A stretch of 64,000 bases of DNA from Eledone cirrhosa (lineage: Eukaryota): positions 292,330,001 to 292,394,000 of the forward strand of contig OZ024743.1 in NCBI GenBank assembly GCA_964016885.1, written 5' to 3'. A program made the position numbers and the translations under genes. The notes beneath the pieces were generated by a model. The model searched no databases and had not been told where the DNA came from. It saw only the letters and a list, made by a program, of their open reading frames with translations. The stretch's first letter is position 1, and each line of letters opens with the position of its first letter. This document shows, in pieces, positions 20,421-58,360 of the stretch.

Positions 20421-20430
20421 CTTCTTCTTC

Positions 20431-20477
<47 letters not shown>
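20421..20477 (+). repeat. (CTT)n(TTA)n tract, left boundary of the retrotransposon array
   Basis: Seen directly. Further (TTA)n spacers start at ~29795, 31653, 37588, 42982, 43219, 44158, 44481, 46017, 47526, 49038, 50023, 55947 and 56213. Confidence 0.95.
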
Positions 20478-20693
20478 GAATGCCATGGTTGACGGAGGCT
20501 CGGCTCTGTAAGGTATAGTAATTTTTAACCGTTAAAACAATTGTAAATTGTTTAAAACTTGAACCAAATTGTTGATAAAGACACCCTCCTCCTCGTGAGA
20601 GGGGTCTTTCTGTCCGTTATTTGGCCCTTCGGGGTTAAATAACCAGTTATTGGGGTTTTGTACCCAAAATTTCATTTTAAACAAAAAAACAAC

Positions 20694-22763
20694 ATGGCTA
20701 CGAAAAAGAAATTTCATACGTCACTCCCACTCATTCCGTCTTCTTCTTCCTCAATCATCACTACAGCAGAGAGAAGATTGTCTCTCTCCCTCCCTTCTCT
20801 TTCGCAAGTGACGAAAGAAAAGAAAAGTCTCGTGCAAAGCGTGCAAGGTTTCTCCACGACGACGACGACAGCGACGAAACAGGTTTGCGGGAAATACGAA
20901 AACCCAGTTCATTCGTCTGACGTCAGGAATAATAGCAGTAGCAGCCGTAATAACAACAGCAACAGTGACAATGAAAACAACAGTAGCAGCCGCAAAAGCA
21001 TCACCAGCAGCATAAACAACGACAGCATTAGCAGCAGCAACACCAACAACAACCACAGCAACAGCGGCGGAGGCAGTAGTCGTAGTACCTGCAGCAACAA
21101 CATAAGTACCAGCAGCTCTGACGACAACAACAACAGCAGAGAAAAACCAATCTCATTTGCAGGTATTGCGAAAAACTTGGAAACAATCCTCATAACAAAT
21201 GAGGAATTAGAGGAAGCGAAGAAGATGGTGACAAAGAACGGACACCGAGCAATCTGCAAGGCAGCGGAAAAACTTTTCGAAACCCAAGAGCACTGTACGG
21301 TCACGTACCGTACAGTAAGTACAAAATCCCGTAGAGTGGAAAGAGCCACAGAGGCCCAAATACAAAAAGCCTTGGGGTCTGTGTGGCAGCGGAAAACGCA
21401 CATCACCCGAGGCAAAAAATATGCCACCGTAGACGTACTTTTTGCCACACCCCAGGAGGCAAAGGCCCAATCAGTAGTGACCCTAAGGAGCGAGGAAATG
21501 GTGTTGGTGCCCTCCTACTGCGGGCAAAAAATTGTGAGGGTCAAACTGACCCACGTCCCCCCCGGAATGACCCCTTCTTGGCTGGCCGCGTCTGTCCTCG
21601 TCGGAATCGAGGACAAAACAACTGTACTGCAAGTACAGAAAAAAGTAAGAGAAGATTGGGTCGGCTCCTCCATTGAGATGCTAATCCAAACCAACCAGGA
21701 GTGCATCGAAGCTATCCCGGATGTGATAGACTTCGATAACGGCACTCAACTGCCCATAAGTGTTGAGGGCAAACGCCCGAAATGCTTTCGCTGTTGATCG
21801 AAGACTCACCTCGGGGCCTTCTGCAACGAGGAGACCCTGAGAAAGAAGAAAACCCCCCTCCTTCCGAATCCGGCTCCACGGCTACCAGCAACAGGACAAG
21901 CGGCAACCAGGAACGATAGGTCCGTGGCACCCATACCCACTCCACGGAAATCAAAAACAGCAGCAGCAGTGGAAATATTAACAACAACAACAGCAATACC
22001 AAATGCAGCAGCAACAGAGACTCCAGTGCAAACATCACCAACAACAACAAGTGAAAGAGTGGAGCTGGTACCCCTCCCCGACCTCACAGAATCAGACATG
22101 GAGTGTGAGGTGGGAGAGGGATGGCAAAAGGTCGTAAGAAGGCACAAACGCAGAAGCAGCGCATCGTCGCCTTTGAAAAGGGAGGAAAGAAATGAGAAAA
22201 GGGTAAAGTCTACTGCAAAGAGACCCACAGCAGCAACAACACCAACACCATCACCACCCACACTAGCACCACCATCACCACCGGCGACAACTCCACCGCC
22301 AACAACACCTTTAACACCACCACCACAAGCACCAACATCGCAAACACAACAACAAAACACACACACCCAGCAACAACGACAAGAAAATAGCAGAACCACA
22401 CCCCACCCCCAGAAAAACAAATGCACGGCAATAAACACACACAACAAGAAACTAATGACTTACATAATTGAACACACAGACATTTCACAACAGGACTACA
22501 TAATACCAGCACCAATCAAAACGCCAACTAACATAAGACTGCTAAAAATAGCACAGAAACAATACACAAACATTAAAACGAAATTCCCCAACGCAGTTGG
22601 TGATTTCAGGGACCTAGGAGGAACCATCAATCGAAGAGTATATTCAGACATTCTCTTAGAAGAGCCGACGAACAGCCGAAGGGACGATTCAACGGTCCCT
22701 TCACCAGACGATCAAGTGAAAAGGGATGTAAAAACCATCCCTCCTCTACCAAAAGTACGGTAA
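20694..22763 (+). pseudogene. Tx1 ORF1 (gag-like, CCHC knuckle), disrupted
   Basis: ATG at 20694. Knuckle CFRC*SKTHLGAFC with TGA at 21795-97, then a frameshift into the Pro/Thr-rich C-terminal part ending at 22763. Confidence 0.8.
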
Positions 22764-22798
22764 GTGGTCTTTCCCATCTTTTCCACTCTATTTTAAAC

Positions 22799-25700
22799 AT
22801 GACCTCACTCAGAATAGGCAGCATAAATGCGCGTGGCTTGGGGTCGTCATGGAAGCAGGGTCACCTGCTCAACGACCTCAGGTCACTAAACATAGATGTA
22901 GTGGCCATCAGCGAGACCAGAATCTCCGAAGCACGGGCCTTCGCACCGATCTTCGGCGGCTACGATGTGTACGCATCTGCCAGCCGTCCTGGATCGGGAG
23001 GAGGAGTTGCTGTGCTTTTTCGGAGAGGCCGTCTATGCCCCGGCAGGAGCAGGGCGGCCTGATTTCTTCCGGCGTCTGGAGAACTTTCTTGGAACGTCCC
23101 GCTCTTTAGTGTTAGTGGGCGACTGGAACGGGATCTTAGATGCACGCTGGGACTGTGTGGGATTAGCGGATAGGGGTGGTGGGTGCAAGAGCCTCACCAA
23201 CCTGCTCAGGCGTTTTGAACTGTCTGACAGCTACCGATTGGATTTCCCGAATGTGCCAATGTGGACTTGGACAAACCGCATAGGGTCATCCAGATCATAT
23301 CTAGATAGAGTATTTTGTAGGGAAATAGATAGGTCTAGCATAGGCTGTCCACAATTCAAGATAGTCAGCTACACGGACTACAAATTCGTGACCTGTGTGC
23401 TTGACTTAGATAGGCTTCATAGACGAGGACCCGGCTACTGGAAGCTAAACGCGTCCTTACCAGCGCGCAAGGCCTACAGAGACCGGATTAGCGAACTAGT
23501 TAAGCGGGCGTTGACGGGGGCCATCGTCAACAACAAGTGGTGGTTTGCTCTGAAAAGAGCGATTAGAATAGAATCGATTAGGTTTAGTAAGGCTTTAGCA
23601 ATAGAGAAAAATAGAGCAGAGGGAGAACTAGTTAGAAAATTAGACGAGGCGCTTAGCAAAGGCATTGCGACCGACGTGCTTGCGGCGAAATTGGCCCTTG
23701 ACCAATTCTTCAATGCAAAGCACGAAGGCTGCGTTGTCAGAGCTGGGGTGCGTGCTCTCAGACACGAGGGGGCGAAAGCCGTTCAATGGGCCCGAGTGGC
23801 GGAGGCGCGTCGTGGCAACAAAGCCACGATCCGGTCTTTGGTGGACCACGACGGGCGCATGCTACTCGATCCCGGGCAAATGTGTGAAGCTTTTCAGCGA
23901 CACTTCGCTCAGCTGTTCGGGGGCAGCGGGGGGCCGGGTAGAGGGATGGACTTTAGTGTCTACCTCGACGGACTGCCGCGGCTCTCGGCCACTGAGGCGA
24001 AGTGTTGCGAAAAGCCGATAACAGCCGCTGAAGTAAGGGAGGCAATGACTGGCTGCACAAGGGGTATATCGCCTGGTTTGGATGGTCTGCCCTATGAACT
24101 TTACGTACAGATGCCAGACTTGTTCGGAGGCCTCTTGGCGGACGTCTACTGCAACTGGCAACAGAACGGGAGAATTCCCAGTTCTGTGAGCCGAGGAGCG
24201 GTGGCACTGCTGAGAAAGGATCCGAACAAGGGGGATAACATAGAAAATTTCCGGCCCATAACTCTGCTAAACACAGAGTTTAAGATTTTGGCCAAGGTGC
24301 TAGCAAAGAGTTTGGCGCTTGTCGTTGGTGGTCTGGTGGGAGAGGCGCAGACATGCGCCATTCCCGACAGATCCATCCACGACAACCTCCACCTCATGCG
24401 ATACATCGTAGAGAGGGTAGCTAGGGAACCTGGCACGGGTGGGTCCTTGATCAATTTAGATCAGTCGAAAGCTTTCGATAGGGTCGACCATCGTTACCTA
24501 GCGGAAGTCCTGAGGGCGGCTGGCTTTGGGCCCGTCTTCAGAGGCTGGATCGCTGCCATGCACAGCGACATCTGCTCTGTGGTGAGAGTGAACGGTCACC
24601 TGTCGGAACCGTTCAACATCATGCGCTCGGTCCGCCAAGGATGTCCCCTCTCGTCCCTCTTGTACGTATTGACTCTCGAGCCATTACTGCACAAACTGGA
24701 GACGTTGAGGGGAGTCCCGCGCGAACTAGGATGCGGAAGATCCGTGTCAGCATATGCGGACGATGTCACCGTAGTGGTGTCGAACGCCAAACACATCGAG
24801 GCGATCGGCACTACACTAAGAGAATACGAAGCGGTGACAGGAGCAATGATCAACCAGGAAAAGTCAGTGGGCCTGCAGCTCGGCACCTGGAGAGGCAGGT
24901 CCATGCCGTCCAACAGCGTCGTCGGGCGCTGGACGGATGGACCGGTTAAATTGCTAGGGGTCTGGTTCGGTCCGGACCTCCAGACGGACAAAAACTGGGA
25001 CGAGGTGACGAGCAGGGTGGCTTCTCTCACCCAGAAGTGGGCGGAGAGGAAGCTATCCCTGAAAGGTCGAGCGGAGGTGGCTAACGCGTACATCGCGTCT
25101 GTCATCTGCTACCGCCTAACCGTCGTACCTTGTCCTAAGCCTCGCCTGACTGCGCTGGAGCGTTTGCTCTTTCGCTTTTTGTGGAAGGGACGTGCTCCGA
25201 TGGTCAGGCGGTCCATCTGTTGTCAACACCAGCTACGTGGAGGGCTGGGCATGCCGTGGCTGATGATGCGCAGACACGCGCTCAGGCTACGACATCTCCA
25301 CCTCTTCCTCGACGGTGATCAGGTGTGGTCGCCGTTTGCAAGACACGTTTTTCCCCAGCTCGCCTCCTTGACGGAGCTGCAGTCCTGGGTCAAGCGAAGA
25401 CCGAGAGGGAGCGCTTGGAGACTGGAATGTCTTCAGGCGCTCACAGCCCTCGACCAATCGGGCAATGTGATCGGTGGAAACTCCACCTTGGCGTTCTATA
25501 GGGGATTAGTGGAGGGGAAGAGCGACGACGTACTTGGAGAAACTCTAGGCGTCGACGAAAATCAACTAGCCAATCTCTTCGGAAGGACTTTCGGGCCGGG
25601 GCCTATGGACAACTTCCAGAAATCCCTGGCCTGGCAGTGCTACCGAGGAGCTTTGCCAGTTCGGGATAAACTCTACAGGCATGGAGGTGCCGTCAGCCGG

Positions 25701-26120
25701 GCATGTCCGAGATGCGCGTAGGGCGACGAAACCGTCCTGCACGCACTCGTCCAGTGTCCGAGCATTGCTGACTTGTGGGTTTATGTCGAACACCTGCTGC
25801 CACGTGTAGGACGGATCCAGCTATCAGCTGAGTCCATCGTGAGGATTGCCCCGCCCCTTTCCTTTAGCCTGGAAGGGCAGGCAGTTTTTATCTGTCTGGT
25901 GGCCATGGCGAAAGAGATAGTATGGTGGACACGTTTGAAAGGGCTGAAGACGAGCACTTACCTCTTCGGTGATGCCCTGATTAACTTTTTCAAATTTCAT
26001 TTGAAAAGGAAAATCAGGGTAGAGAGGGAAGTGCTCTCTTCCCAGCATTTTGTTGAAAGATGGGTGAGAGAAGCAAGTATAGCCCGAATGAATGGGCCTT
26101 CTCTGAGTATGTGTCTGTAA
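22799..26120 (+). pseudogene. Tx1 ORF2 (APE endonuclease-RT-zinc finger), disrupted
   Basis: SINARGL, ISET, GDWN, SYLD, RPITLLN, QGCPLS, YADD, CPRC..ETVLHALVQC. Has a 98-bp deletion at 23028/29 relative to copy 2 and a TAG at 25719-21. Confidence 0.92.
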
Positions 26121-26280
26121 ATTAAAGGTGGAAAACTGGGAGAGGGCACTTGCCCTGGTGGTCAGGGCCACTGTGGTCTGTTAATGGGCTTTCTCCACAA
26201 ATGTCCCTCGGAAGTCTCCCCCCTATTGGGGAATTTTTCTTTGTTATTTTATTTCATCCTCTGTTTTTTATATCTGATAT

Positions 26281-29200
26281 AAGTCTTTCTATATTATATC
26301 AGGTCTGTTTGCATCTATTTTTCGGTCTGTTTGGATGCTAAAGTTCCACAAGATTGAGATGTGATCTTTTTCAAGTATGGGAGGTGGTTGATGCTCCCAC
26401 CAATTCTTTTGATGGGGCAGGTCAAAATGCTTACACATTATCCAATGTATGTATTGTGCAGCTCTGTCATGCCTGTTTAGGTATTCGGTTGGAGCTATAG
26501 GACTGCACATTGAAATTATATGGTCAATGGTCTCTGGTTGTTTTTTGCATACACGGCATATTGGGCTGCACCCATTTTTTATTATGTTGGCTTGGTAATT
26601 TTTTGTTTTGCAGACACTGATCTTGTGCCGATATAATCAGTACTTCAGTCTCCGATTTCAGTCCAGAGGATACCAACCACTGATGGGTTAAAGTTTTGTC
26701 AACATCAGGATTGTTAGCTCGCTCTGGGTATTTTCCATACAGAGGCTTTTCTTGCCATTTCTTAGCCAGTTTCTGTAGCAGTTCTTTCTTTTCAGTTACT
26801 TTTACCTGCTTTGCTTTTTCTGTGTTTTCCATTTCAGCAGTAAATGGGACTTCTGAAATTTGTAGTCCATTACTGTATCTTTGTGGATCTTTTGTAATGG
26901 AATATGATCTTTTTATGCTTTCGTATTTCAAAACGAGTTTGATCATCCAATCATGTGATTCCCTTAGATATGTAGATAATCCAATTGTTGCAGTTTTCAA
27001 CGCAATGTCTAACTGGATTAACCCACGTCCTCCTTCTTTCCTAGGGAGATATATTCTATCTATATCTGCTTTAGGGTGATGCATTCTGTGCATGGTTAAG
27101 AATTTTCGAATTTTTGTATCGAGCCTACGGATTTCTGTGCTTGACCAGTTGATGACATTGTAACTGTAGGTTACTACTGGTATGGCAAGCGTGTTTATGG
27201 CATCGATCCTATTCCTTGCATTCAATTCCGTTCTTAAGATTGCTCTTACTCTGCGGTAATATTCCTTCCTTATCCTTTCCCTCATTGTCGAGTGCTTGAT
27301 TCCGTTTCCTTCACAAACACCTAGATATTTGTAAGTTTTTTCTTGATCAAGTTCTCTTATCACGTTCCCCCGATCAAGATTAATGTCTGAACTCTTCAGC
27401 AGCTTTCCTCTGGTGAACGTTGCTTTGGCGCATTTATCTAGTCCAAACTCCATTTTAATGTCATCACTGAACTGCTTCACTGTGGATAATAGCCCTTGCA
27501 ATTGTTCATCATTTTTTGCAAATAGTTTCAGGTCATCCATGTAGAACAGGTGATTAATGGTTTTGTCATAGACTTTATATCCATGTTTTGTTTCATTGAG
27601 CATTTTACTTAATGGTATAAGTGCGATGCAGAATAAAAGTGGTGATAAAGGGTCACCCTGAAAAATTCCACAATTAATGTTAACTTCTCCATCTTCCAGT
27701 GATTTTGTTTCACTATTCAAATGGAGTGTCGTTTTCCATGTCTCCATACTGAATGACAAAAACCTCCTGACAACGGGGGATATTTTGAAAATCTCTAAAC
27801 ATTTTTCAATCCAACTGTGTGGCAAACTATCGAATGCTTTTTTATAATCTATCCAAGCAATCGATAGATTTTTGTGTCTATTATGACAATCTTCCAGTAT
27901 CATTTTGTTAACCAGAATCTGATCCTTACAGCCATATGAGCCTCGTTTACACCCTTTTTGCTCAATGGGAAATAGGTCATTTTTTATCAGGTGGTCATAT
28001 GTGTATTCAGTTAGGACTGATGTTAAAATGTTATACATTGTGGTCAAGCAAGTTATCGGTCTGTAATTTTCGGGATTGTTTGTCTCATCATTCTTCGGAA
28101 GCAGGAATGTAATGCCGTTAACCAGCCATGAAGGTATCTTTTCTGGCTCCTTAACTATTTCATTGTAAAGTTGGGCTAACAGCTCATGAGATTCTGTGAA
28201 GGCATTTATCTAAAAGTTTTGTATTTTGTCTTTTCCTGGGGATTTCCTTTGGCTGGTTTTTCTTAGAGCCAAGCGCAACTGTTCAACTGTTATATTTTCC
28301 CATGTTTGTTCCTCATGGTGAGCTGTATCTTTCATTTGTCTGTCTATCCATGGGGCATGTATGTTATGAACTTTTTCTTCGACCCAGATCTTTTCCCAGA
28401 ATTCTTGCACTTCCTCCTTGGGTGGTATTGATTTAGCAGTTATTGTTGACTTACCAATTTTTCTGTAGAAGTTTCTTTGGTTGTTTTTGAACATATTATT
28501 GTCCTTATAGAATCTAGATCGTTTTTCAAAGCGCCTTATACGAGCAGCTTTGGCCGACACTTTTTGCTTGATTATTTCTAAGAGCATGTCTATGTCACAT
28601 GTTGATTTTTCAATTTTCTAAGTTTAGTTTGTTTAACATGTTCACCTACTTTATAGTTTGTTAAAATTTCTATGTCAGATCGGAGAAGGTCTATTTGGCG
28701 ATTGATGTTCTCTTGCCAAGTAGATTTCTTGTGGGAATTCCTTTGTTTTTTCATCTTCACTCCACATAAGTGCGTGGTGACTTTAGCCGATGCATAATAG
28801 AGATGATTTAAATCAGTAATGTTTAGTTTGTTTGTGATGATAATGTTTTTGAGAACTATGTTAGTCTTGTGTATTATCCTTTGGTTCTGTTTGGAGTTCT
28901 GGATCTTAGGGGGGGGGGGGTATCTCGTCGCCCCATGTCAGATTCTTTCATTTTCATCCATTCGATCATAATTTCATCCTTCAAGTTGGCAAGTTCATTT
29001 TCATTCATTTCTTTATCATTTACGATCTCATTATTTTCATTTGGAGTTTCATCCTGAGCATGCACTCCCTCCAATTTTCGATCCTTTCTTTAATTTGTTC
29101 TGTTGCCAGTGATGCCGCCCCAACTCTGGGATTCGAAGTGTTACAGTTTACCTCGTTTTCACTGACACATGTTTCATTTTCCCTTCGCTGACTTTGTGCT

Positions 29201-29794
29201 AATAGCTTGATCTGATCAATTTCTATATCAGTTAGTAACATTTTTCTTACAATATTTCTTCGTATATTGGCTAGTTTGTTACTGTCAATATAGCCTCTGT
29301 TTTCGGGATGTTTCTTTTTCCAGTTGATATATGTCTGTTCTGTATTCGATGTATTTGATGGGTAGTACATGGCAGTGTAGAAAGCCTCAAGTACTTCTTT
29401 ATTATCTTCCCTTGACCATTTTTCTCTCTTTTTCTTTGGATTTCTTGGTGGTGAGCATGGAGGGCCAACAGTAGGAGTATTCCGGTTATGGGAGGTCTCC
29501 AGCTCCGAAGTGATGGGAAGGTTTGAACCATTAGCTGATTTTTCGACACCAGTCTGGTTCCTCTCTGAGGGACGCGGCCCTTTTTTACCCGGGTGACGGC
29601 CGATCCGGTATGAGATTTTATCATTAGACATTTACTTTATTTTGTCGCGTTTTATCCTTATCCGCCAAGGGGTAATCATTTCGTGTTACCACTTCTAGAA
29701 CGAGTGTCAACCAAGACTAGAGGGGTCGTTCTCCCCTAGAGACACGACTATTCCCCGCCGGCCGCCATCCCGGTATTTCTTGGTCATGGGGTTT
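26281..29794 (-). mobile_element. R4/Dong-clade element family B copy 1 (5' complete, 3' deleted, frameshifted)
   Basis: ATG at 29631; Myb-like KWSREDNKEVLEAFY; DYKKAFD, GIFQGD, YMDD; ends inside the RLE at NRPDII. Confidence 0.9.
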
Positions 29795-29811: not shown

Positions 29812-31652
29812 TGCATTTATCTTGCTTTATGTTCATACGAGTTATCACCAAGTCACAACCAGTGACCTCAAGAGACAACAAGGTCCGCCATGTTCAAGAA
29901 AGAACATACATATTCACACATGCATCCTTAGTGTTTAGACTTGTGATGTAATTATATTGACAGGATCTTCTTTAGTATATGGGCAGTTCCCATTAGTACT
30001 ATCTTTTGTATTTCTCCTATACGCGGGTTTCCTGGGATTTGCGATAAGTAGTCGTTAGACCCCTTAGGTATCATTCCCAGAGCGCCTACAACCACTGGTA
30101 TTGTTTTAGTTCTCAATTTCCACATTTTTCCAATTTCTATCTCCAGGTCCTTATACTTGCTCAATTTTTCAAATGTTTTTATAGATACATTCTTGTCTAT
30201 TGGAACAGACATATCAATTAGCAGGCATACCCTCCTTTGAAAGTCCTTCAATATTATATCAGGCCTATTTGCATCTATTTTTCGGCCTGTTTGGATGCTA
30301 AAGTTCCACAAGATTGAGATGTGATCTTTTTCAAGTATGGGAGGTGGTTGATGCTCCCACCAATTCTTTTGATGGGGCAGGTCAAAATGCTTACACATTA
30401 TCCAATGTATGTATTGTGCAGCTCTGTCATGCCTGTTTAGGTATTCGGTTGGAGCTATAGGACTGCACATTGAAATTATATGGTCAATGGTCTCTGGTTG
30501 TTTTTTGCATACACGGCATAATGGGCTGCACCCATTTTTTATTATGTTGGCTTGGTAATTTTTTGTTGGCAGACACTGATCTTGTGCCGATATAATCAGT
30601 CCTTCAGTCTCCGATTTCAGTCCAGAGGATGCCAACCACTGATGGGTTAAAGTTTTGTCAACATCAGGATTGTTAGCTCGCTCTGGGTATTTTCCATACA
30701 GAGGCTTTTCTTGCCATTTCTTAGCCAGTTTCTGTAGCAGTTCTTTCTTTTCAGTTACTTTTACCTGCTTTGCTTTTTCTCTGTTTTCCATTTCAGCAGT
30801 AAATGGAACTTCTGAAATTTGTAGTCCATTACTATATCTTTGTGCATCTTTTGTAATGGAATATGATCTTTTGGTGCTTTCGTGTTTCAAAACGAGTTTG
30901 ATAATCCAATCATGTGATTCCCTTAGATATGTGGATAATCCAATTGTTGCAGTTTTTAACGCGATGTCTAACTGGATTAACCCACGTCCTCCTTCTTTCC
31001 TAGGGAGATATATTCTATCTATGGCTGCCTTAGGGTGATGCATTCTGTGCATGGTTAAGAATTTTCGGATTTTTGTATCGAGCCTACGGATCTCTGTGCT
31101 TGACCAGTTGATGACATTGTAACTGTAGGTTACTACTGGTATGGCAAACGTGTTTATGGCATCGATCCTATTCCTTGCATTCAATTCCGTTCTTAAGATT
31201 GCTCTGACTCTGCGGTAACATTCCTTCCTTATCCTTTCCCTCATTGTCGAGTGCTTGATTCCGTCTCCTTCACAAACACCTAGATATTTGTAAGTTTTTT
31301 CTTGATCAAGCTCTCTTATCACGTTCCCCCGATCAAGATTAATGTCTGAACTCTTCAGCAGCTTTCCTCTGGTGAACGTTGCTTTGGCGCATTTATCAAG
31401 TCCAAACTCCATTTTAATGTCATCACTGAACTGCTTCACAGTGGATAATAGCCCTCGCAATTGTTCATCATTTTTTGCAAATAGTTTCAGGTCATCCATG
31501 TAGAACAGGTGATTAATGGTTTTGTCATAGACTCTATATCCATGTTTTGTTTCATTGAGCATTTTACTTAATGGTATAAGTGCGATGCAGAATAAAAGCG
31601 GTGATAAAGAGTCACCCTGAAAAATTCCACAATTAATATTAACTTCTCCAGC
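29812..31652 (-). mobile_element. Dong family B copy 2, 5'-truncated
   Basis: ORF 29952-31562 has YMDD, CRVC..ETIDHIISMC, RHD, RPD..ID..EKLSKY. (TTA)n on both sides. Confidence 0.92.
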
Positions 31653-31681
31653 TTATTATTATTATTATTATTATTATTATT

Positions 31682-43275: not shown

Positions 43276-43276
<1 letters not shown>

Positions 43277-44182: not shown

Positions 44183-44478
44183 AAGCAAGTATGGCCCGAA
44201 TGAATGGGCCTTCTCTGAGTATGTGTCTGTAAATTAAAGGTGGAAAACTGGGAGAGGGCACTTGCCCTGGTGGTCAGGGCCACTGTGGTCTTTTAATGGG
44301 CTTTCTCCACAAATGTCCCTTGGAAGTCCCCCCCCCCCCCTATTGGGGAATTTTTCTTTGTTATTTTATTTCAACCTCTGTTTTTTACACGCAGAAATGC
44401 CCATTTGTACCTTCCTGTATTGTCCTGTACTGTCCTTAATGTCTACTTTATGTGAACCCTTGTGGTTAATAAAGAAAA

Positions 44479-44480
<2 letters not shown>
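44183..44480 (+). mobile_element. Tx1 5'-truncated stub (~300 bp)
   Basis: End of ORF2 plus 3'UTR, with (TTA)n on both sides. Confidence 0.9.
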
Positions 44481-44533
<53 letters not shown>

Positions 44534-44534
<1 letters not shown>

Positions 44535-47525: not shown

Positions 47526-47566
<41 letters not shown>

Positions 47567-49037
47567 GTTGTTGTTATTCCTTGAATCTCAGTCATTGATG
47601 TTGGTTAACTGGAAAGTCCGTTGGAATGAATATCAAGCCACTACCTGCAGCCTCAGATATTCAGGACGTATCGGAGGGTTCTTGCTGTTCCCAGCAAGCA
47701 TGCCTTTTGAAGCGTTCCAAAAAGCGTGAAGGGGCCGATTTCCTTTAACCATCCCTGGAAACTTTTGGAGATAGTCCCCAGTGCGCCTATGACAATCGGG
47801 ATCACTTTGACTTCATTGCAGTTCCAAATCCTTTTCACCTCCCACTTTAGGTCCTGGTATCGGTTAATTTTCTCCCTCTCCTTCTCTTGCACTCTCGTGT
47901 CGAAAGGGCAGGCCACATCCACAATCAGACACGATCTTTTTTCTTTGTCCACAACCACCAGGTCAGGTCTATTGTGTTCCAGTTTTTTGTCCGTCTGTAT
48001 CCTAAAATCCCACAGCACCTTCACCTGATTGTTCTCCATCACCGCCTCTGGCCTATGCTCATACCATTTCTCAGAATGTGGTAAATTGTTTACCCTGCCC
48101 ATCACATCGTGTCTCCAGCCCTTATAGTGGGTCTGGGCTAGGTGTTTACACTCGGACACAATGTGAGCCACAGTCTCCTCTCTCTCTCCACAGATCCTGC
48201 ACAGTGGGCTAGCCTCCTCCCTGTAAATATGGTGCTTCAACCACTTCGTTTTGAGGGCCTGCTCCTGCGCAGCCATTAGCATTCCTTCTGTAGCCTTTTT
48301 GAGGTCTCCTCTTCTCAACCAGTTCCATGTCTGTGTATCTCTAAATTCAGTTTTCTCAAAGAAGGTACTATGAAGGGATTTTCCCTTAAGGCTGCTCTTC
48401 CTCCTTGATGTTATTTCCTCCTTGGACATCCCCTGGCCTACTGTCCCCTCCTTCAGTACAGTTCTGAGCATTGGCTCCTTACTATCAGTCACGTATTTGT
48501 GTAGGCTGTTTTTCTCCATCTGAACACAGTCCTCTATGCTGATAAGACCTCTTCCACCCTCAGATCTCCTTAGGTAGAGTCTATCGACATCACTCCTCTT
48601 GTGGAACATGTTGTAGATAGTCAATAGCTTCCTAGTCTTCCTATCCATTTCTTTTTGTTCAGCAACATTCCATTTCAGAATTCCCGCACTGTACCTAATA
48701 ATAGACACAGCTCGGGAATTTACTGCGCTTATGGCATTTCTGCTGTTCAAATGTGACTTCAATACGCTCCTTACTCTCCGAATGTATTCAGTTCTTAACA
48801 ATTCCTTCATTTTTTTGTTCTTTATGCCATCAGCCTCCAGAACGCCCAAATACTTGTATCCTTCCTCAGAGTCAATTTCCTTTATCATCTCACCTGTTGG
48901 TATCTGGATTCCGTTACTTCTGCTCAACCTACCCCTCCTCATCACAATGACTCCACACTTACTAATACCAAACTGCATACATATATCACTGCTGAAAATA
49001 CGGACAGTGTCAACAAGCACATCCAACTCCTTCTCAC

Positions 49038-49075: not shown

Positions 49076-50020
49076 GTTGTTGTTATTCCTTGAATCTCAG
49101 TCATTGATGTTGGTTAACTGGAAAGTCCGTTGGAATGAATATCAAGCCACTACCTGCAGCCTCAGATATTCAGGACGTATCGGAGGGTTCTTGCTGTTCC
49201 CAGCAAGCATGCCTTTTGAAGCGTTCCAAAAAGCGTGAAGGGGCCGATTTTCTTTAACCATCCCTGGAAACTTTTGGAGATAGTCCCCAGTGCGCCTATG
49301 ACAATCGGGATCACTTTGACTTCATTGCAGTTCCAAATCCTTTTCACCTCCCACTTTAGGTCCTGGTATCGGTTAATTTTCTCCCTCTCCTTCTCTTGCA
49401 CTCTCGTGTCGAAAGGGCAGGCCACATCCACAATCAGACACGATCTTTTTTCTTTGTCCACAACCACCAGGTCAGGTCTATTGTGTTCCAGTTTTTTGTC
49501 CGTCTGTATCCTAAAATCCCACAGCACCTTCACCTGATTGTTCTCCATCACCGCCTCTGGCCTATGCTCATACCATTTCTCAGAATGTGGTAAATTGTTT
49601 ACCCTGCCCATCACATCGTGTCTCCAGCCCTTATAGTGGGTCTGGGCTAGGTGTTTACACTCGGACACAATGTGAGCCACAGTCTCCTCTCTCTCTCCAC
49701 AGATCCTGCACAGTGGGCTAGCCTCCTCCCTGTAAATATGGTGCTTCAACCACTTCGTTTTGAGGGCCTGCTCCTGCGCAGCCATTAGCATTCCTTCTGT
49801 AGCCTTTTTGAGGTCTCCTCTTCTCAACCAGTTCCATGTCTGTGTATCTCTAAATTCAGTTTTCTCAAAGAAGGTACTATGAAGGGATTTTCCCTTAAGG
49901 CTGCTCTTCCTCCTTGATGTTATTTCCTCCTTGGACATCCCCTGGCCTACTGTCCCCTCCTTCAGTACAGTTCTGAGCATTGGCTCCTTACTATAGGTCA
50001 CGTATTTGTATAGGTTGTTT
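44534..50020 (-). mobile_element. Four tandem 5'-truncated Dong-A copies (44534-46016, 46067-47525, 47579-49037, 49088-50020)
   Basis: ~1.51 kb period. Each encodes part of the thumb, the CCHC and the RLE, and lacks FMDD. Separated by (TTA)n(TTG)3TTATT. Confidence 0.95.
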
Positions 50021-50021: not shown

Positions 50022-50057
<36 letters not shown>

Positions 50058-53000
50058 GGCGACCTACGTAGGAAATCGTATTATCGTGAGCTCCGCAAAG
50101 GTTTGTTATTTCCGTTTGTTTAAAAATTGCCATTTATGGAAAATTTTATTGTAAATTGTTTATAAGCACACATACATTGTTTTCCGAAAAGGACACCCAA
50201 AAAGATTGGGGCCTTGTGCCCAAAGTTTTAACTTTTATTATTATCCAAAAATTTCTTTGAAAAAAAAATGGCTAATTCCCCTATGCACGAAGCAGCTGAA
50301 AGCCTTCCTCACAAAATAACACCTCACACCGACACCACCATTGTAAATGTTACTACGTTTGCCAACACAAAAAAAAATATAAGCAGTAGCAATATTTTAA
50401 ATTTGTCTCAGGCAGACATTCATTTCCCGCCATTACCAATGACTGCAGGTGTTAAACCCTCCACCACCACCACCACCGCGACAACAAAAACAAAAGAAGA
50501 AAAAAATAAATTAACTCGTGACGTCGAAATGAAATCAAGCAAAATGGACTCTTCCCCACCAACGACGACTGACGTCACCACCACCACAACTGAAAATAAA
50601 ATTAATATTAACGATAGCAACAACAACAACAATGACATTATAAAACCGACCCTCAGTTTCGCCATCGTAGCAAAACAATTCGAAGCGTTCACGGTAACTC
50701 AAGAAGATTTAGAAAATGCCAAACAAATGGTAAAGAAAGATGGGTACAGGGTCAGCCTCACCCCCCCCCCCCCGCCAACCCCACCTAATAAAATGGAGCA
50801 TCGGCGCCTGTGCACCGTGTCGTATAGAACAATAAATGTAAAATCGCGCCGAGTGGAACGGGCATCCGAGTCCCAAATCCAAAAAGCTTTGGGACATGTG
50901 TGGGCAAGAAAAACCCACATCAGACGTGGGCAAAAGTATGGAACCGTGGATGTGTTCTTTGAAACACCAGAGGAGGCTAGAGAACACTCCATGGCCCCAT
51001 TAAAAAGTGACGACCTCACACTCGTCCCAAGCTATTGTGGCCAGAGACTCGTAAAGATCAGGGTGACCCACGTTCCACCGGCCATCGAAATTCCCTGGCT
51101 AATAGCGGCTGTCCTCGCCGGCATCGAAGCCAACACAAAAATAATAGCAGTAGCAAAAGAAAAGTAGGAAAACTGGTCCGGATCTTGGATGGAGCTCCTG
51201 ATCCAAGCGGACCAAAAAAGCATTGAGGAGATCCCAGAGGTAATATACCTCACTGACGGCAGCCACCTCGCGGTAATTGTCGAGGGCAGAAGACCTAGGT
51301 GTGTCGTTTGTGGTGAAGGAACCCACCTAAGGGCTTTCTGCCCTCAGGCTAAAAGGTTGAGGCCACCTCTCCTACCCTCCCCAGTGACACAACCATCAAC
51401 ACCACCAGTAGCAGAGATGGCAGCAACAACTGTAGCAGCAACAACAGAAGCAACTATAACAGCAACAACCCCAGCAACAGTAGCAAAACCAACACCACTA
51501 CCACCACCAGCAAAACCAACACCACCACCACCCAACGCTTCAGAACTAGCACCAGCGCCTACACCATCACCACACCACAACCAAAACTAACGGCTGTGGA
51601 GGATTTTCCACTCCCCGGCCTATCACAACTGGAGACAGATTGTGACGACGAGGAGTGGGAAACGATATCCGGAAAAAAAAATAGAAACCAAAAAAGAAAA
51701 AATTCTCTTCCTTCCCCCTCCAAAAACAAAATACAGAGGGAAACAAATAAACTAAGAAACAAAAAAGTTAGGACAGATATGCCACCATCCACACCAGCAT
51801 CACCAACCCCATCAACCCAAACACCAACACCATCACCATCATTAACTCCAACACCACCATCACCTACACCACAAAAGTCACCAAAATGCGAAACAGAAAC
51901 AAACCCACAACAAACGCAAACAAAACAGAACAACCAAAACGATACACACTACACAGCATTAAATTTGAACAATAAGCAATTATTACACTACATCCAACAC
52001 AACACCAGCATCACAGAAAAAGACTACACAACAACCCCAAAATACACACCACCTCCACACATACAAATCACTCGCATCACACAGAAAACGTACATGTCAC
52101 AAAAACAAAAATTCCCCAAAGACATCGGAGACTTCCGACAAGCACTCTCCAGGAGGATTTATAAGGATATCCTTCCTGAGGAGGCCACAAGCAGTGAAAA
52201 GGATGGAAAAATCGTCCTTCCCCTACGAGAAGTAAGGTAAGTTGTCTTTCCCATCTTTTCCACTCCTTTTCAACATGACCTCACTCAGAATAGGCAGCAT
52301 AAATGCGCGTGGCTTGGGGTCGTCATGGAAGCAGGGCCACCTGCTCAACGACCTCAGGTCACTAAACATAGATGTAGTGGCCATCAGCGAGACCAGAATC
52401 TCCGAAGCACAGGCTTTCGCACCGATCTTCGGCGGATACGATGTGTACGCATCTCCCAGCCGTCCGGGATCGGGGGGGGAGGAGTTGCTGTGCTTTTTCG
52501 GAGAGGTTTGGATCTTGCCATACGGGCCATCTTCCTGGACCCAGAAGGTAAGTTGGTGGTGCTGGACGTGACTAGCGGAGACGGGCAAGCTTTCAGGTTA
52601 GTGGCCGTCTATGCCCCGACAGGAGCAGGGCCGCCTGGTTTCTTCCGGCGTCTGGAGACCTTTCTTGGAACGTCCCGCTCTTTAGTGTTAGTGGGCGACT
52701 GGAACGGGATCTTAGATGCACGCTGGGATTGTGTGGGATTAGTGGATAGGGAAGGAGGGTGCAAGAGTCTCACCAACCTGCTCAGACGTTTTGAACTGTC
52801 TGACAGGTATCGAATGGATTTCCCGAATGTACCAACGTGGACTTGGACAAATCGCATAGGGTCATCCAGATCATATCTAGATAGAGTATTTTGTAGGGAA
52901 ATAGATAGGTCTAGCATAGGCTGTCCACAATTCAAGATAGTCAGCTACACGGACCACAAATTCGTGATCTGTGTGCTTGACTTAGATAGGCTTCATAGAC

Positions 53001-55944
53001 GAGGACCCGGCTACTGGAAGTTAAACGCGTCCTTACCAGCGCGCAAGGCCTACAGAGACCGGATTAGCGAACTAGTTAAGCGGGCGTTGACGGGGGCCAT
53101 CGTGAACAACAAGTGGTGGTTTGCTCTGAAAAGAGCAATTAGAATAGAGTCCATTAGGTTTAGTAAGACTTTAGCAATAGAGAAAAATAGAGCAGAGGGA
53201 GAATTAGTTAGAAAATTAGATGAGGCGCTTAGCAAAGGCATCGCGACCGACGTACTTGCGGCGAAATTGGCCCTTGACCAATTCTTCAATGCAAAGCACG
53301 AAGGCTGCGTTGTCAGATCTAGGGTGCGTGCTCTCAGACACGAGGGGACGAAAGCCGTTCAATGGGCCCGAGTGGCGGAGGCGCGTCGTGGCAACAAAGC
53401 CACGATCCGGTCTTTGGTGGACCACGACGGGCGCATGCTACTCGATCCCGGGCAAATGTGTGAAGCTTTTCAGCGACACTTCGCTCAACTGTTCGGGGGC
53501 AGTGGCGGGCCGGATCGAGGGATGGACTTTAGTGTCTAACTCGACGGACTGCCGCGGCTTTCGGCCACTGAGGCGGAGTGTTGCGAAAAGCCGATAACAA
53601 CCGCTGAAGTACGGGATGCAATGACTAGTTGCACAAGGGGTAAATCGCCTGGTTTCGATGGTCTGCCCTATGAACTTTACGTACAAATGCCAAACTTGTT
53701 CGGAGGCCTCTTGGCGGACGTCTACTGCAACTGGCAATAGAACGGGAGAATTCCCAGCTCTGTGAGCGTAGGAGCGGTGGCGCTGCTGAGAAAGGATCCG
53801 AACAAGGGGGATAACATAGATAATTTTAGGCCCATAACTCTGCTAAACACAGAGTTCAAGATTTTGGCCAAGGTGCTAGCAAAGAGGTTGGCGCTTGTCG
53901 TTGGTGGTCTGGTGGGAGAGGCGCAGACATGCGCCATTCCCGACAGATCCATCCACTACAACCTCCAACTCATGCGATACATCTTAGAGAGGGTAGCTAG
54001 GGAACCTGGCACGGGTGGGTCTTTGATCAATTTAGATCAGTCGAAAGCCTTCGATAGGGTCGACCATCGTTACCTAGCGGCAGTCCTGAGGGCGGCTGGC
54101 TTTGGGCCCGTCTTCAGAGGCTGGATCGCTGCCATGCACAGCGACATCTGCTCTGTAGTGAGAGTGAATGGTCACCTTTCGGAACCGTTCAACATCATGC
54201 ACTCGGTCCGCCAAGGATGTCCCCTCTCGTCCCTCTTGTACGTATTGACTCTCGAGCCATTACTGCAGAAACTGGAGACGTTGAGGGGGTCCCGCGCGAA
54301 CTAGGATGCGGAAGATCCGTGTCAGCATATGCCGACGATGTCACCGTAGTGGTGTCGAACGCCAAACACATCGAGGCGATCGGCACTACACTAAGAGAAT
54401 ACGAAGCGGTGACAGGAGCAATGATCAACCAGGAAAAGTCAGTGGGCCTGCAGCTCGGCACCTGGAGAGGCAGGTCCATGCCGTCCAACAGCGTCGTCGG
54501 GCGCTGGACGGACGGACCGGTTAAATTGCTAGGGATCTGGTTCGGTCCAGACCTCCAGACGGACAAAAACTGGGACGAGGTGACGAGCAGGGTGGCTTCT
54601 CTCACCCAGAAATTGGCCGAGAGGAAGCTATCCCTGAAAGGTCGAGCGGAGGTGGCGAATGCATACATCGCATCCGTCATCTACTACCGCGTGACCGTCG
54701 TACCTTGTCCTAAGCCCCCCCCCCCCCCCTGACTGCGCTGGAGCGTTTGCTCTTTCGCTTCCTGTGGAAGGGACGCGCTCCGATGGTCAGGCGGTCCATC
54801 TGCTGTCAACACCCGCTACGTGGAGGGGTGGGCATGCCGTGGCTGATGATGCGCAGACACGCGCTCAGGCTACGACATCCCCACCTCTTCCTCGACGGTG
54901 ATCAGGTGTGGTCGCCGTTTGCAAGACACGTTTTTCCCCAGCTCGTCTCCTTGACGGAGCTGCAGTCCTGGGTCAAGCGAAGACCGAGAGGGAGCGCTTG
55001 GAGACTGGAATGTCTTCAGGCGCTCACAGCCCTCGACCAATCGGGCAATGTGATCGGTGGAAACTCCACCTTGGCGTTCTATAGGGGATTAGTGGAGGGG
55101 AAGAGCGACGACGTACTTGAAGAAACTCTAGGCGTCGACGAAAATCAACTAGCCAATCTCTTCGGAAGGACTTTCGGGCCGGGGCCTATGGACAACTTCC
55201 AGAAATCCCTGGCCTGGCAGTGCTACCGAGGAGCTTTGCCAGTTCGGGATAAACTCTACAGGCATGGAGGTGCCGTCAGCCGGGCATGTCCGAGATGCGC
55301 GCAGGGCGACGAAACCGTCCTGCACGCACTCGTCCAGTGTCCGAGCATTGCTGACTTGTGGGTTTATGTTGAACACCTGCTGTCACGTGTAGGACCTATC
55401 CAGCTATCAGCTGAGTCCATCGTGAGGATTGCCCCGCCCCCTTCCTTTAGCCTGGAAGGGCAGGCAGTTTTTATCTGTCTGGTGGCCATGGCGAAAGAGA
55501 TAGTATGGTGGACACGTTTGAAAGGGCTGAAGACGAGCACTTACCTCTTCGGTGATGCCCTGATTAACTTTTTCAAATTTCATTTGAAAAGGAAAATCAG
55601 GGTAGAGAGGGAAGTGCTCTCTTCCCAGCATTTTGTTGAAAGATGGGTGAGAGAAGCAAGTATGGCCCGAATGGATGGGCCTTCTCTGAGTATGTGTCTG
55701 TAAATTAAAGGTGGAAAACTGGGAGAGGGCACTTGCGCTGGTGGTCAGGGCCACTGTGGTCTTTTAATGGGCTTTCTCCACAAATGTCCCTTGGAAGTCG
55801 CCCCCCTATTGGGAATTTTTCTTTGTTATTTTATTTCAACCTCTGTTTTTTTACACGCAGAAATGCCCATTTGTACCGTCCTGTATTGTCCTGTACTGTC
55901 CTTAATGTCTACTTTATGTGAACCCTTGTGGTTAATAAAGAAAA

Positions 55945-55946
<2 letters not shown>
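50058..55946 (+). mobile_element. Tx1-clade LINE copy 3, full length (5' module type 2), disrupted ORFs
   Basis: ORF1 50268-52240 and ORF2 52275-55703, with stops and frameshifts. Same 5' start ggcgacctacgtag as copy 2. Confidence 0.92.
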
Positions 55947-55978: not shown

Positions 55979-55990
55979 GCTGTTGTTATT

Positions 55991-56211
55991 CCTTGAATCT
56001 CAGTCATTGATGTTGGTTAACTGGAAAGTCCGTTGGATTGAATATCAAGCCACTACCTGCAGCCTCAGATATTCAGGACGTATCGGAGGGTTCTTGCTGT
56101 TCCAAGCAAGCATGCCTTTTGAAGCGTTCCAAAAAGCGTGAAGGGGCCGATTTTCTTTAACCATCCCTGGAAACTTTTGGAGATAGTCCCCAGTGCGCCT
56201 ATGACAATCGG

Positions 56212-56212
<1 letters not shown>
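55991..56212 (-). mobile_element. Dong-A 3' stub
   Basis: Matches ~37629-37850, with (TTA)n on both sides. Confidence 0.9.
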
Positions 56213-56279
<67 letters not shown>

Positions 56280-56280
<1 letters not shown>

Positions 56281-58210
56281 GTTGCATTTATCTTGCTTTA
56301 TGTTCATACGAGTTATCACCAAGTCACAACCAGTGACCTCAAGAGACAACAAGGTCCGCCATGTTCAAGAAAGAACATACATACACACACATTGCATCTT
56401 TAGGTGTTTAGACTTGTCACGTATTTATATTGACAGAATCTTCCTTAGTATATGGGCAGTTCCCATTAGTACTATCTTTTATATTTCTCCTATACGCAGG
56501 TTTCCTGGGATTTGCGATAAGTAATCATTAGACCCCTTAGGTATTAGTCCTAGAGCGCCTACAACCACTGGTATTGTTTTAGTTCTCAATTTCCACATTT
56601 TTGCAATTTCTATCTCCAGGTCCTTATACTTACACAATTTTTCAAATGTTTTTATAGATACATTCTTGTCTAATTGGAACGGACATATCAATTAGCAGGC
56701 ATACCCTCTTTTTAAAGTCCTTCAGTATTATATCAGATCTATTTGCATCTAATTTTCGGACTGTTTGGATACTAAAGTTCCACAAGATTGAGATGTGATC
56801 TTTTTCAAGTATGGGAGGTGGTTGATGCTCCCACCAATTCTTTTGATGGGGCAGATCAAAATGCTTACACAATATCCAATGTATGTATTGTGCAGCTCTG
56901 TCATGCCTGTTTAGGTATTCGGTTGGCGCTATAGGACTGCACATTGAAATTATATGATCAATGGTCTCTGGTTGTTTTTTACATACACGGCATAATGTGT
57001 TGCATCCATTTTTTATTATGTTGGCTTGGTAATTTTTTGTTAGCAGACACTGATCTTGTGCTGATATAATCAGTCCTTCAATCTCCGATTTCAGTCCAAA
57101 CGATGCCAATCACTGATGGGTTAAAGTTTTGTCAACATCAGGATTTTTAGCTCTTTCTGGTTATTTTCCATACAGAGGCTTTTCTTGCCATTTCTTAGCC
57201 AGTTTCTGTAGCAGTTCTTTCTTTGCAGTTACTTTTACCTGCTTTGCTTTTTCTGTGTTTTCCATTTCAGCAGTAAATGGGACTTCTGAAATGTCTAGTC
57301 CATTACTGTATCTTTATGCATCTTTTGTAATAGAGTATGATCTTTTGATGCTTTCGTGTTTCAAAACGAGTTTGATCAGCCAATCATGTGATTCCCTTAG
57401 GTATGTAGATAATCCAATTGTTGCAGTTTTCAACGCGATATCTAACTGGATTAACCCACGTCCTCCTTCTTTCCTAGGGAGATATATTCTATCTGTATCT
57501 GCCTTAGAGTGATGCATTCTGTGCATGGTTAAGAATTTTCTAATTTTTGTATCGAGCCTACGGATCTCTCTGCTTGACCAATAGATGACATTGTAACTGT
57601 AGGTTACTACTGGTATGGCAAGCGTGTTTATGGCATCGATCCTATTCCTTGCATTCAATTCCGTTCTTAAGATTGCTCTTACTCTGCGGTAACATTCCTT
57701 CCTTATCCTTTCCCTCATTGTCAAGTGCTTGATTCCGTCTCCTTCACAAACACCTAGATATTTGTAAGTTTCCTCTTGATCAAGTTCTCTTATCACATTC
57801 CCCCGATCAAGATTAATGTCTGAACTTTTCAGCAGCTTTCCTCTGGTGAACGTTGCTTTGGCGCATTTATCTAGTCCAAATTCCATTTTAATGTCATCAC
57901 TGTGGATAATAGCCCTTGCAATTGTTCATCATTTTTTGCAAATAGTTTCAGGTCATCCATGTAGAACAAGTGATTAAGGTTTTGTCATAGACTTTATATC
58001 CATGTTTTGTTTCATTGAGCTTTTTACTTAATGGTATAAGTGCGATGCAGAATAAAAGCGGTGATAAAGAGTCACCCTGAAAAATTCCACAATTAATATT
58101 AACTTCTCCTGCTTCCAGTGATTTTTTTTCACTATTCAAAAGGAGTGCCAATTTCCATGTCTTCATACTGAATGACAGGAACCTGCTGACAACGGGTGAT
58201 ATTTTTCCAT
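56280..58210 (-). mobile_element. Dong-B copy 4, 5'-truncated, more decayed
   Basis: RT C-terminal half, CCHC and RLE fragments with several frameshifts. Confidence 0.9.
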
Positions 58211-58360
58211 TTCCTCTTCCTCCTCGTCCACCTCCTCCTTCTCCTCCTCCTCATTCTTCTTCTTCTTCTTCTTCTTCTTCTTCTTCTTCTTCTTCTTCTT
58301 CTTCTTCTTCTTCTTCTTCTTCTTCTTCTTCTTCTTCTTCTTCTTCTTCTTCGTCTTCTT
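58211..58360 (+). repeat. (CCT)n/(CTT)n tract, right boundary of the array
   Basis: Seen directly. It is the source of the poly-K/R/L ORFs. Confidence 0.95.

Follow-up and report, generated by a model that had tools for sequence, protein, structure and literature searches.

TRAS and SART are both APE-type retrotransposons of the R1 clade that reside in telomeric (TTAGG)n repeats. In Bombyx, the TRAS1 and SART1 families occupy one simple repeat with opposite insertion directions, as described in parts of PMC7265360. Microsatellite targets have also been described for the Tx1 clade, including (TC)n for Kibi, (TTC)n for Koshi and (TTCC)n/(TTTC)n for crocodilian families (PMC4494074), and for Dong, with (TAA)n reported as its target in the majority of insects, molluscs and cnidarians (PMC7998251, PMC3812793). 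R4/Dong-clade elements have a Myb/SANT-like domain at the N-terminus and no zinc fingers at this end (PMC7998251), and Bombyx Dong has a 5' HDV-like ribozyme (PMC3774820).

We analysed a window of 64,000 nucleotides from Eledone cirrhosa, in which Tx1-like and Dong-like elements are placed end to end in a 38-kb array. The window lies on a 379-Mb contig, at a distance of 86 Mb from its end. Dong insertion in (TAA)n, microsatellite targeting by Tx1 and the opposed orientation of TRAS and SART are already known, and the parts of the array represent known biology. As in TRAS/SART, two kinds of element oppose each other in one repeat, and a sequence-only reading of the window had proposed an interstitial analogue of that system. 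The likeness is confined to geometry: the target is an interstitial (TTA)n rather than a telomeric or subtelomeric repeat, one partner encodes a restriction-like endonuclease (RLE) where TRAS and SART are both APE, and the sites number in the thousands. Unlike Kibi, Koshi and the crocodilian families, the Tx1-like elements have (TTA)n as their main target and share it with an RLE clade. The passages of PMC4494074 that were consulted do not name (TTA)n as a Tx1 target, and our literature searches did not find a TTA-targeting Tx1 element on Dong's target in reverse orientation.

Composition of the array

The array is made up of 16 pieces. They belong to four families, of which two are Tx1-like with an APE and two R4/Dong-like with an RLE (Table 1). 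All five Tx1-like pieces are on the + strand and all 11 Dong-like pieces (four Dong-A, seven Dong-B) on the - strand, with a chance probability of 3e-5 for 16 pieces, or of 2e-3 if these represent ~10 independent events. The interval 20421-58360 contains 14 tracts of (TTA)>=5 and none of (TAA)>=5, while the remaining 26 kb of the window contain none and one, respectively. The spacer tracts are only 15-66 bp each, and a tract is present at 13 of the 15 internal junctions. No tract was identified at junction 26270/26281, where both 3' ends have been lost, and junction 42811/42815 has a single TTA. The right end of the array (58204) adjoins a TCC/TTC tract that has no TTA. The suggestion that each insertion regenerates the target on both flanks is overstated, as this is not always the case.

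Table 1. Pieces of the array, from left to right, in window positions
Position	Strand	Piece	Remarks
20421..20477	+	Left boundary	(TTC)3, then (TTA)15
20478..26270	+	T1, Tx1-C	Own 5' end/ORF1 to ~22715, Tx1-B-like ORF2 APE-RT; deleted internally near 23025, with stops and without the 3' end
26281..29794	-	A1, Dong-A	3' end missing, 5' UTR truncated; then (TTA)5
29812..31652	-	A2, Dong-A	5'-truncated; RT-CCHC-RLE end intact; TTA on either side
31680..37587	+	T2, Tx1-B	Full-length; ORF1, ORF2 APE-RT-zf, frames broken; AATAAA..(TTA)n end
37626..42811	-	B1, Dong-B	Full-length; 1141-aa open frame; 5' UTR with 3 x 330-bp repeat; youngest piece (0.2% from nearest copy)
42815..43218	mixed	T3 (Tx1 3' stub, +), (TTA)17, B2 (Dong-B stub, -)	99.3% copy of T4/B3 junction
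43276..46016	mixed	A3 (Dong-A, -), (TTA)8, T4 (Tx1 stub, +), (TTA)17, B3 (Dong-B, -)	
46064..49037	-	B4 and B5, Dong-B	Duplicated in tandem, 99.9% identity; mosaics that combine B6 and B3
49085..50020	-	B6, Dong-B	5'-truncated; 24-bp deletion common to B4, B5 and B6
50056..55946	+	T5, Tx1-B	Full-length; 96% identity to T2
55988..56212	-	B7, Dong-B	3' stub; TTA on either side
56279..58204	-	A4, Dong-A	5'-truncated; highest divergence of all pieces (3.6% from its nearest copy)
58205..58360	+	Right boundary	Degenerate (TCC)n followed by (TTC)n; no TTA

The tract and piece counts confirm the 14 (TTA)n tracts and five Tx1 pieces on + and the 11 Dong pieces on - in the sequence-only reading. Its total of about 17 pieces is reduced to 16, the two halves of the first element probably having been counted separately. 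Its three families become four, because the join of a Tx1-C 5' end/ORF1 to a Tx1-B-like ORF2 was recovered at all three other loci fetched for this test, which makes Tx1-C a separate family. TTA borders each of the three short stubs on either side, as the reading stated, but those at 43033-43218 and 44182-44480 are located within duplicated blocks and are therefore not independent evidence of insertion. Arrays of 40-47 kb are present at other genomic loci, and this locus is thus one example rather than a special site. Reads over 19300-20520, from one RAD-seq run and from three runs of a single sample that may be the source of the assembly, covered the unique flank only and skipped the repeat junction; they showed neither an empty allele nor a read that spans the array.

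Identity of the two clades

The Tx1-like ORF2 matched PF03372 (E 1e-13), PF00078 and PF13966, which corresponds to an APE-RT-zinc finger architecture, and it contains visible motifs that we take to be the APE catalytic motifs. The best named relative was "Transposon TX1 uncharacterized 149 kDa protein", an automatic name, with 32% identity (E 2e-86), and the best PDB match was human L1 ORF2p. Together with a CCHC knuckle in ORF1, for which the zf-CCHC match (E 0.0015) was below the cut-off, and microsatellite-specific insertion, this resembles Kibi, Koshi and the crocodilian Tx1 families. A descriptor for HDV-like ribozymes gave only loose, G-U-rich matches in Tx1-C, which were dismissed.

The Dong-like elements have a single ORF with an RT followed by a CCHC knuckle and an RLE, and the 1141-aa frame of Dong-B contains the motifs CRIC..H..C, RHD and RPD..DV.CP..EKINRY. 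A profile of this protein aligned to R2 over residues 141-1116 (E 1e-65), and the structure model aligned to R2Tg through residue 1141 (Z 32.5, rmsd 4.0, 758 residues aligned). As in Dong, an RT, a CCHC knuckle and a C-terminal PD-(D/E)xK-like motif are present, a Pfam search gave no match to an APE domain, and the elements reside in (TAA)n in their own sense. These two families differ from Dong as reported in that they occur in mixed arrays with Tx1 and have a minor (GAA)n flank. In a comparison of the C-terminal 569 aa, Dong-A and Dong-B have only 39% identity; their 5' ends are related. The N-terminus contains a confident helical domain at 58-129, which starts with W-T-K-E-L; no N-terminal zinc finger was found, and none of 32 homologues had a Myb match in Pfam. 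A single-sequence model was poor (pLDDT 45), and a wide fold search barely covered residues <234. No named R4/Dong reference was present among the 120 homologues listed. There were no ribozyme matches in Rfam, and our own crude descriptor for HDV-like ribozymes, run without a positive control, gave no matches in eight Dong 5' ends. Rfam matches to CrcZ on the TTA tracts were attributed to chance.

Target and orientation across the genome

We mapped flanks and orientations genome-wide, a check that the sequence-only reading had proposed, and both the shared target and the opposite orientation were upheld by Tx1-B 5' ends, Dong ends and the polarity of neighbouring pairs. Insertion of the Tx1-like elements is sequence-specific: of 2,261 exact Tx1-B 5' ends, 2,106 are immediately preceded by ATTATTATT, i.e. 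(ATT)3, and none follows AATAATAAT, i.e. (AAT)3, within 4 bases, where ~0.4 would be expected by chance, and TTA was found at all 30 sampled Tx1-C 5' ends. For Dong, (TAA)n in the sense of the element was found at 97 of 100 intact 3' ends and at 25 of 30 full-length 5' ends. Among the first 30 copies on contig C1 in each of six end classes, 170 of 180 ends touched TTA and none touched TAA only. Across the tract from these 180 ends, which come from overlapping loci and are not independent, we identified a family member in the expected orientation in 125 cases, one in the opposite orientation in three, a SINE tail in 13 and none of these in 39. Ten ends initially labelled as Dong-A in + orientation were due to a SINE inside the Dong-A reference and are counted here as SINE tails.

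Neighbouring 3' ends <10 kb apart shared polarity in 81 of 85 pairs, including 37 of 38 Tx1-Dong pairs, declining to 83 of 165 for pairs >20 kb apart. In total, 177 of 285 ends were clustered, compared to a null mean of 28 and maximum of 56. At 15-kb linkage, six of the 42 clusters with both clades contain both polarities, with inverted members. The genome has ~46,700 tracts of >=8 units and at least 9,348 exact-match 3' ends of elements, and copies are spread along contig C1. These results show that both clades are located in the same TTA repeat by the thousand, and almost always in opposed orientation.

The junction census of truncated classes is based on copies that retain their 3' end and break off within coding sequence. 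UTR breaks and internal deletions were dropped, since an earlier census had its truncated classes inflated where the alignment broke in the variable 5' UTRs. The flank of 5'-truncated Dong copies was TAA in the sense of the element in 46 of 65 cases, TTA in none, GAA in four and other sequence in 15. The 19 truncated Tx1 copies were flanked by TTA in eight cases (one really an internal deletion), TTC in three, TAA in one and other sequence in seven. (TTC)n is a minor flank, and corresponds to the target of Koshi (PMC4494074).

Proposed mechanism and alternative explanations

The clade-by-strand rule, TTA at both 5' and 3' ends, clustering, staggered ages and some local duplication were all observed. 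We consider it likely that the polarised arrays result from targeting of (TTA)n/(TAA)n by both clades, with each target-primed insertion leaving repeat for the next. Shared targeting would account for Tx1 being sense and Dong antisense to the TTA strand, and the fresh repeat left by each insertion for the piling up of long arrays. Under the model of target-primed reverse transcription, first-strand priming would start where the TAA strand is nicked for Tx1 and where the TTA strand is nicked for Dong, and each insertion would split or extend one tract into two. Many of the long targets would thereby come to be tracts that flank elements, on which arrays could accrete, and repeats would contribute extra pieces through unequal crossing-over and block copying. 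The seed was likely a pre-existing tract, in many cases either a compound (TTC)n(TTA)n or the ATT tail of a SINE. On balance, we lean towards a broader reading, in which an APE and an RLE clade arrived by convergence at the two opposite strands of a single trinucleotide repeat and now generate much of the target available to them. An insertion by either clade would then open sites to both. The outcome would be a genome-wide, cross-clade, self-feeding network of polarised arrays, with SINE tails and (TTC)n tracts as seeds and with sense and antisense elements fused tail to tail.

Site and strand choice by microsatellite-specific retrotransposons is not well understood (PMC3812793), and this two-clade system makes it directly testable. 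Open ORFs exist in both clades, which offers a natural comparison of two enzymes on one 3-bp substrate. The arrays may also explain hotspots of transposable elements in genomes where Dong-R4 and L1-Tx1 have both been recently active, as reported for Octopus vulgaris in parts of PMC13282606 that present no target analysis. Hypothetically, tail-to-tail Tx1/Dong fusions could give antisense read-through and small RNAs. Neither a host benefit or function nor a link to telomeres is in evidence.

Between four and seven of the 16 pieces derive from DNA-level copying by unequal crossing-over and block copying, and the array has thus not grown by insertion alone. An inverted copy of the A3-T4-B3 block, 98.6-99.5% identical, is located 59 kb upstream. 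The ends of the block fit retrotransposition as one RNA, but this was rejected in favour of DNA-level copying because the sole other copy is so close. That growth is mainly due to duplication, by unequal crossing-over or conversion between neighbouring arrays, with insertion only as a seed, would agree with the mosaic structure of B4/B5, with their single truncation point (seven matches genome-wide, three at this locus), with the A3|T4 junction (two matches genome-wide, both within 60 kb) and with the repeated Tx1C-DongA units in another array. It is nevertheless improbable, since the majority of pieces in this and other arrays are truncated at different points, are 3-7% apart and have closer relatives on another contig. 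Divergence from the nearest copy ranges from 0.2 to 3.6%, and accretion over time is supported by the location of the oldest piece at the right edge and the youngest inside. The view of the array as self-extending by insertion is thus consistent with the staggered ages, but has to be amended for the copied pieces.

A possible but rather doubtful variant, compatible with shared targeting, is that orientation is set when a putative 3' tail of the RNA, (AUU)n or (UAA)n, pairs with the nicked primer, and that either enzyme may nick both strands. In both clades the 3' end continues into the repeat in the element's own sense, TpA steps occur on both strands, and annealing of SART1 RNA to its target influences initiation, according to parts of PMC7265360. 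The same parts of that paper report that endonuclease swaps shift specificity between SART1 and TRAS1 and that the TRAS1 endonuclease nicks a defined site, and two Tx1 ends inside a minisatellite carry only ATTAT; these observations argue against tail pairing. It is very unlikely that only Dong targets the repeat, with Tx1 simply bringing along a TTA tail and transcribing a TTA leader at its 5' end, or inserting loosely in AT-rich DNA and being retained by selection. The low number of TTA-flanked truncated Tx1 copies would fit, but even seven of 19 greatly exceeds the background of 2e-4, no Tx1-B end was in the wrong orientation, and the tract before full-length Tx1 copies varies from 4 to 24 units, with a wide variety of flanks beyond it, among them unique DNA and SINE tails. 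Misassembly through TTA tracts, joining unrelated elements, could have produced the near-identical B4 and B5 as a stutter, but is hardly credible for the array given the short tracts and the thousands of ends that follow the rule; nor would chimeric joins date the pieces or match a junction in the neighbouring array. A founder may also have seeded TTA de novo inside a TTC tract, given that the array is rich in TTC at either end, with A4 as its oldest piece, but free (TTC)n(TTA)n compounds exist as well, and one was found in 16 random stretches.

Composition of the array

The sequence-only reading had proposed a self-extending array of about 17 pieces from three families in this window, with all Tx1 pieces on + and all Dong pieces on -. 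The array is real. Of (TTA)≥5 tracts, 14 lie inside it and none in the rest of the window; (TAA)≥5 tracts numbered 0 inside and 1 elsewhere. The strand assignment held, with five pieces on + coding for APE-RT-zinc-finger ORF2s and eleven on - coding for RT-CCHC-RLE proteins, but the inventory became 16 pieces from four families. The RLE pieces belong to Dong-A (4) and Dong-B (7), whose proteins are 39% identical over 569 aligned residues, and the APE pieces to Tx1-B and Tx1-C, the latter with a distinct 5' end and ORF1 fused to a B-like ORF2, a join repeated at all 3 loci fetched as a test. The TTA spacers were confirmed at 13 of 15 internal junctions, but not at 26270/26281, where a deletion took both 3' ends, nor at 42811/42815, which has a single TTA only. 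The left end reads (TTC)3(TTA)15; at the right end, a truncated Dong-A adjoins a TCC/TTC tract with no TTA. The host genome is 3.0 Gb and contig C4 (OZ024743.1) is 378.8 Mb, which makes the site interstitial.

Features in and beside the window (window positions unless a contig is named)
Feature	Position	Strand	Description
Array	20421-58360 of G000:C4:292,330,001-292,394,000		16 pieces; from self-comparison and junction reading
Neighbouring array	G000:C4:292312500-292320900		10 kb, reverse polarity, just upstream of the window (L237/L238)
Dong-B 5' UTR	41665-42650	-	three 330-bp tandem copies
(GAA)n at a Dong 5' junction	58205-58360
SINE with ATT tail	4163-4191, 15655-15683, 59944-59972		abundant, also at many other loci
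Penelope-like element	61824-63420	+	broken; RT then GIY-YIG-like motif; outside the array
Long inverted repeats, left flank	2234-3100, 8794-9486, 8398-9368		arms 86-97%

In B1, the full-length Dong-B piece, the frame is open over 1141 aa. A 53-sequence profile aligned with R2 proteins from position 141 to 1116 (E 1e-65); its alignment with L1 lay mostly in the RT. A structure search with the AlphaFold model (pLDDT 86.5) placed R2 first (Z 32.5, rmsd 4.0, 758 residues, reaching the C-terminus). A Tx1-B ORF2 from another locus is open over 1152 aa and contains PF03372, PF00078 and PF13966, and an ORF1 has a CCHC knuckle. These domain and structure matches establish the APE/RLE split. The best named relative of the Tx1-B ORF2 is an automatically named TX1 protein (32%); the clade names Dong and Tx1 are putative assignments from architecture, target and this one name transfer, not from a tree.

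Dong-A and Dong-B have a 5' end of ~350 bp in common (76%) while blastn found no match between their ORFs, which suggests that 5' UTRs may have been exchanged. The motif in the Penelope-like element is presumably of the GIY-YIG type; a Pfam search of the window gave no match at this element, and its start is not TTA-flanked. The inverted repeats in the left flank are possibly non-autonomous DNA transposons.

Target and orientation across the genome

Exact patterns, which give lower bounds, identified at least 2,764 3' ends of Tx1-B, 3,102 of Dong-B and 3,482 of Dong-A, and at least 2,261, 2,375 and 1,656 5' ends of Tx1-B, Tx1-C and Dong. The 5' ends were taken as the test of the rule that Tx1 is sense and Dong antisense to the TTA strand, because a 3' repeat might be only a tail. 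The flank and orientation seen in the window recurred throughout the genome: 2,106 of the 2,261 Tx1-B 5' ends lay immediately after ATTATTATT, and 0 of 2,261 followed AATAATAAT within four bases, as compared to ~0.4 expected by chance (rate from 16 random 10-kb stretches). The rule was followed by 30/30 sampled Tx1-C 5' ends and by 25/30 full-length Dong 5' ends.

Among 65 5'-truncated Dong copies with an intact 3' end, the flank was (TAA)n in sense in 46, (GAA)n in 4, reversed in 0 and other in 15. For 19 such Tx1 copies it was TTA in 8 (one of them really an internal deletion), TTC in 3, reversed in 1 and other in 7, a weaker figure than for full-length copies that counts against strict specificity. 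Some of these other junctions resemble sites of later insertion or deletion.

TTA tracts hold further Tx1 families, more diverged but with related 3' ends and oriented as Tx1 (L031, L040, L101, L104, L009, L077), and a repeated element end unlike the four families adjoins TTA tracts at array edges (L032, L072, L105). (GAA)n occurs directly at Dong 5' junctions (L015, L083, L086, L150 and the window), and the element often has a few matching bases there; the repeat could be a secondary target, part of a compound tract or a product of slippage at the junction.

Other arrays and growth of the array in the window

Clustering was examined in 285 ends (the first 100 matches listed for each of three patterns) from the first 83 Mb of contig C1. 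Among these listed matches, 177 lay within 15-kb clusters, against a mean of 28 and a maximum of 56 in 2,000 draws from a uniform null, TTA polarity was the same in 81 of 85 pairs of neighbours <10 kb apart and in 83 of 165 pairs beyond 20 kb, and 36 of 42 mixed clusters had a single polarity. Across the tract from 180 ends (six patterns, each with its first 30 matches on C1; loci overlap), we found a family member following the rule in 125 cases, one against it in 3, a SINE tail in 13 and none in 39; ten labels had been reassigned to SINE tails, as a SINE lies inside the Dong-A reference. Clusters picked for size were arrays of ~47, 40 and >40 kb under the same rule, and one further array contains an inverted member. 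The polarity of the neighbouring array shows that polarity belongs to the tract, not to the chromosome.

Overlapping genome-wide counts of (TTA)8 (286,406) and (TTA)9 (239,711) imply ~46,700 tracts of ≥8 units. Since the exact-match 3' ends sum to at least 9,348, a large part of the long TTA targets probably consists of element-flanking tracts. Of the long tracts fetched from the matches listed for the initial 2.8 Mb of C1, most touch these elements, as predicted by self-extension. The feature holds up and reaches further than the sequence-only reading could show.

The distance to the nearest fetched copy was smallest, 0.2%, for the interior B1 with its open frame and largest, 3.6%, for A4, the Dong-A piece at the right edge, so the pieces arrived at different times. 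These staggered ages agree with the proposed growth by insertion, but not every piece is an insertion: four are local copies and three more are common to the neighbouring array, which leaves ~10 independent events. The Dong-B pieces B4 and B5 are 99.9% identical and truncated at the same point as B3; their first ~940 bases match B6, including a 24-bp deletion, and the remainder matches B3, a mosaic that carries the signature of unequal crossing-over. The genome contains 7 instances of the truncation junction of B3, B4 and B5, and this array accounts for 3. T3-(TTA)17-B2, a Tx1 stub with its Dong-B neighbour, duplicates the T4/B3 junction at 99.3% identity. The A3-T4-B3 block has an inverted copy (98.6-99.5%) 59 kb upstream in the neighbouring array, and its diagnostic junction is present in only these two places in the genome.

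Known systems, proposed mechanism and probable seeding

The components are already known one by one. Dong inserts into (TAA)n in insects, molluscs and cnidarians (PMC7998251, PMC3812793) and has a 5' ribozyme (PMC3774820), while the Tx1-clade Kibi, Koshi and crocodilian families occupy (TC)n, (TTC)n, (TTCC)n and (TTTC)n (PMC4494074). The Tx1 and R1 clades are APE elements and the other target-specific clades RLE elements (PMC4640811). For coleoids, Dong-R4 and L1-Tx1 are reported as abundant or recently active in two papers whose accessible parts do not analyse targets (PMC13282606, PMC8967140); the accessible part of PMC3747384 held nothing further on targets. TRAS1 and SART1 insert in opposite directions (PMC7265360), and the proposed analogy holds for this geometry, but the array is not a member of the TRAS/SART system. 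In the literature searched, which excluded Repbase and Kojima and Fujiwara 2004, we found no report of mixed Tx1/Dong arrays, nor of a TTA-targeting Tx1, which those sources or Fig. 3 and the supplements of PMC4494074, also outside the search, may list. What is new relative to this literature is that, at thousands of sites, two clades share a single microsatellite and consistently face opposite ways in it.

The observations are that orientation follows clade, that both ends carry TTA, and that the elements are clustered, of staggered age and in part duplicated. In TPRT, the strand nicked first is the complement of the element's sense strand; under this model, the TAA strand would supply the primer for Tx1 and the TTA strand that for Dong, and insertion inside a tract would leave repeat at each side. 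Strand choice may be set by the nuclease or by RNA-tail pairing, and effects of both are documented for SART1/TRAS1 (PMC7265360).

The seeds are likely SINE ATT tails or compound (TTC)n(TTA)n tracts. The ATT-tailed SINE borders many arrays, and its dispersed copies end in short ATT runs (≥2 units at 26/41 3' ends); compound tracts border other arrays as well as the one in the window. The last ~25 bases of this SINE resemble Tx1 3' ends; Tx1 may mobilise this SINE, which may in turn supply new targets.
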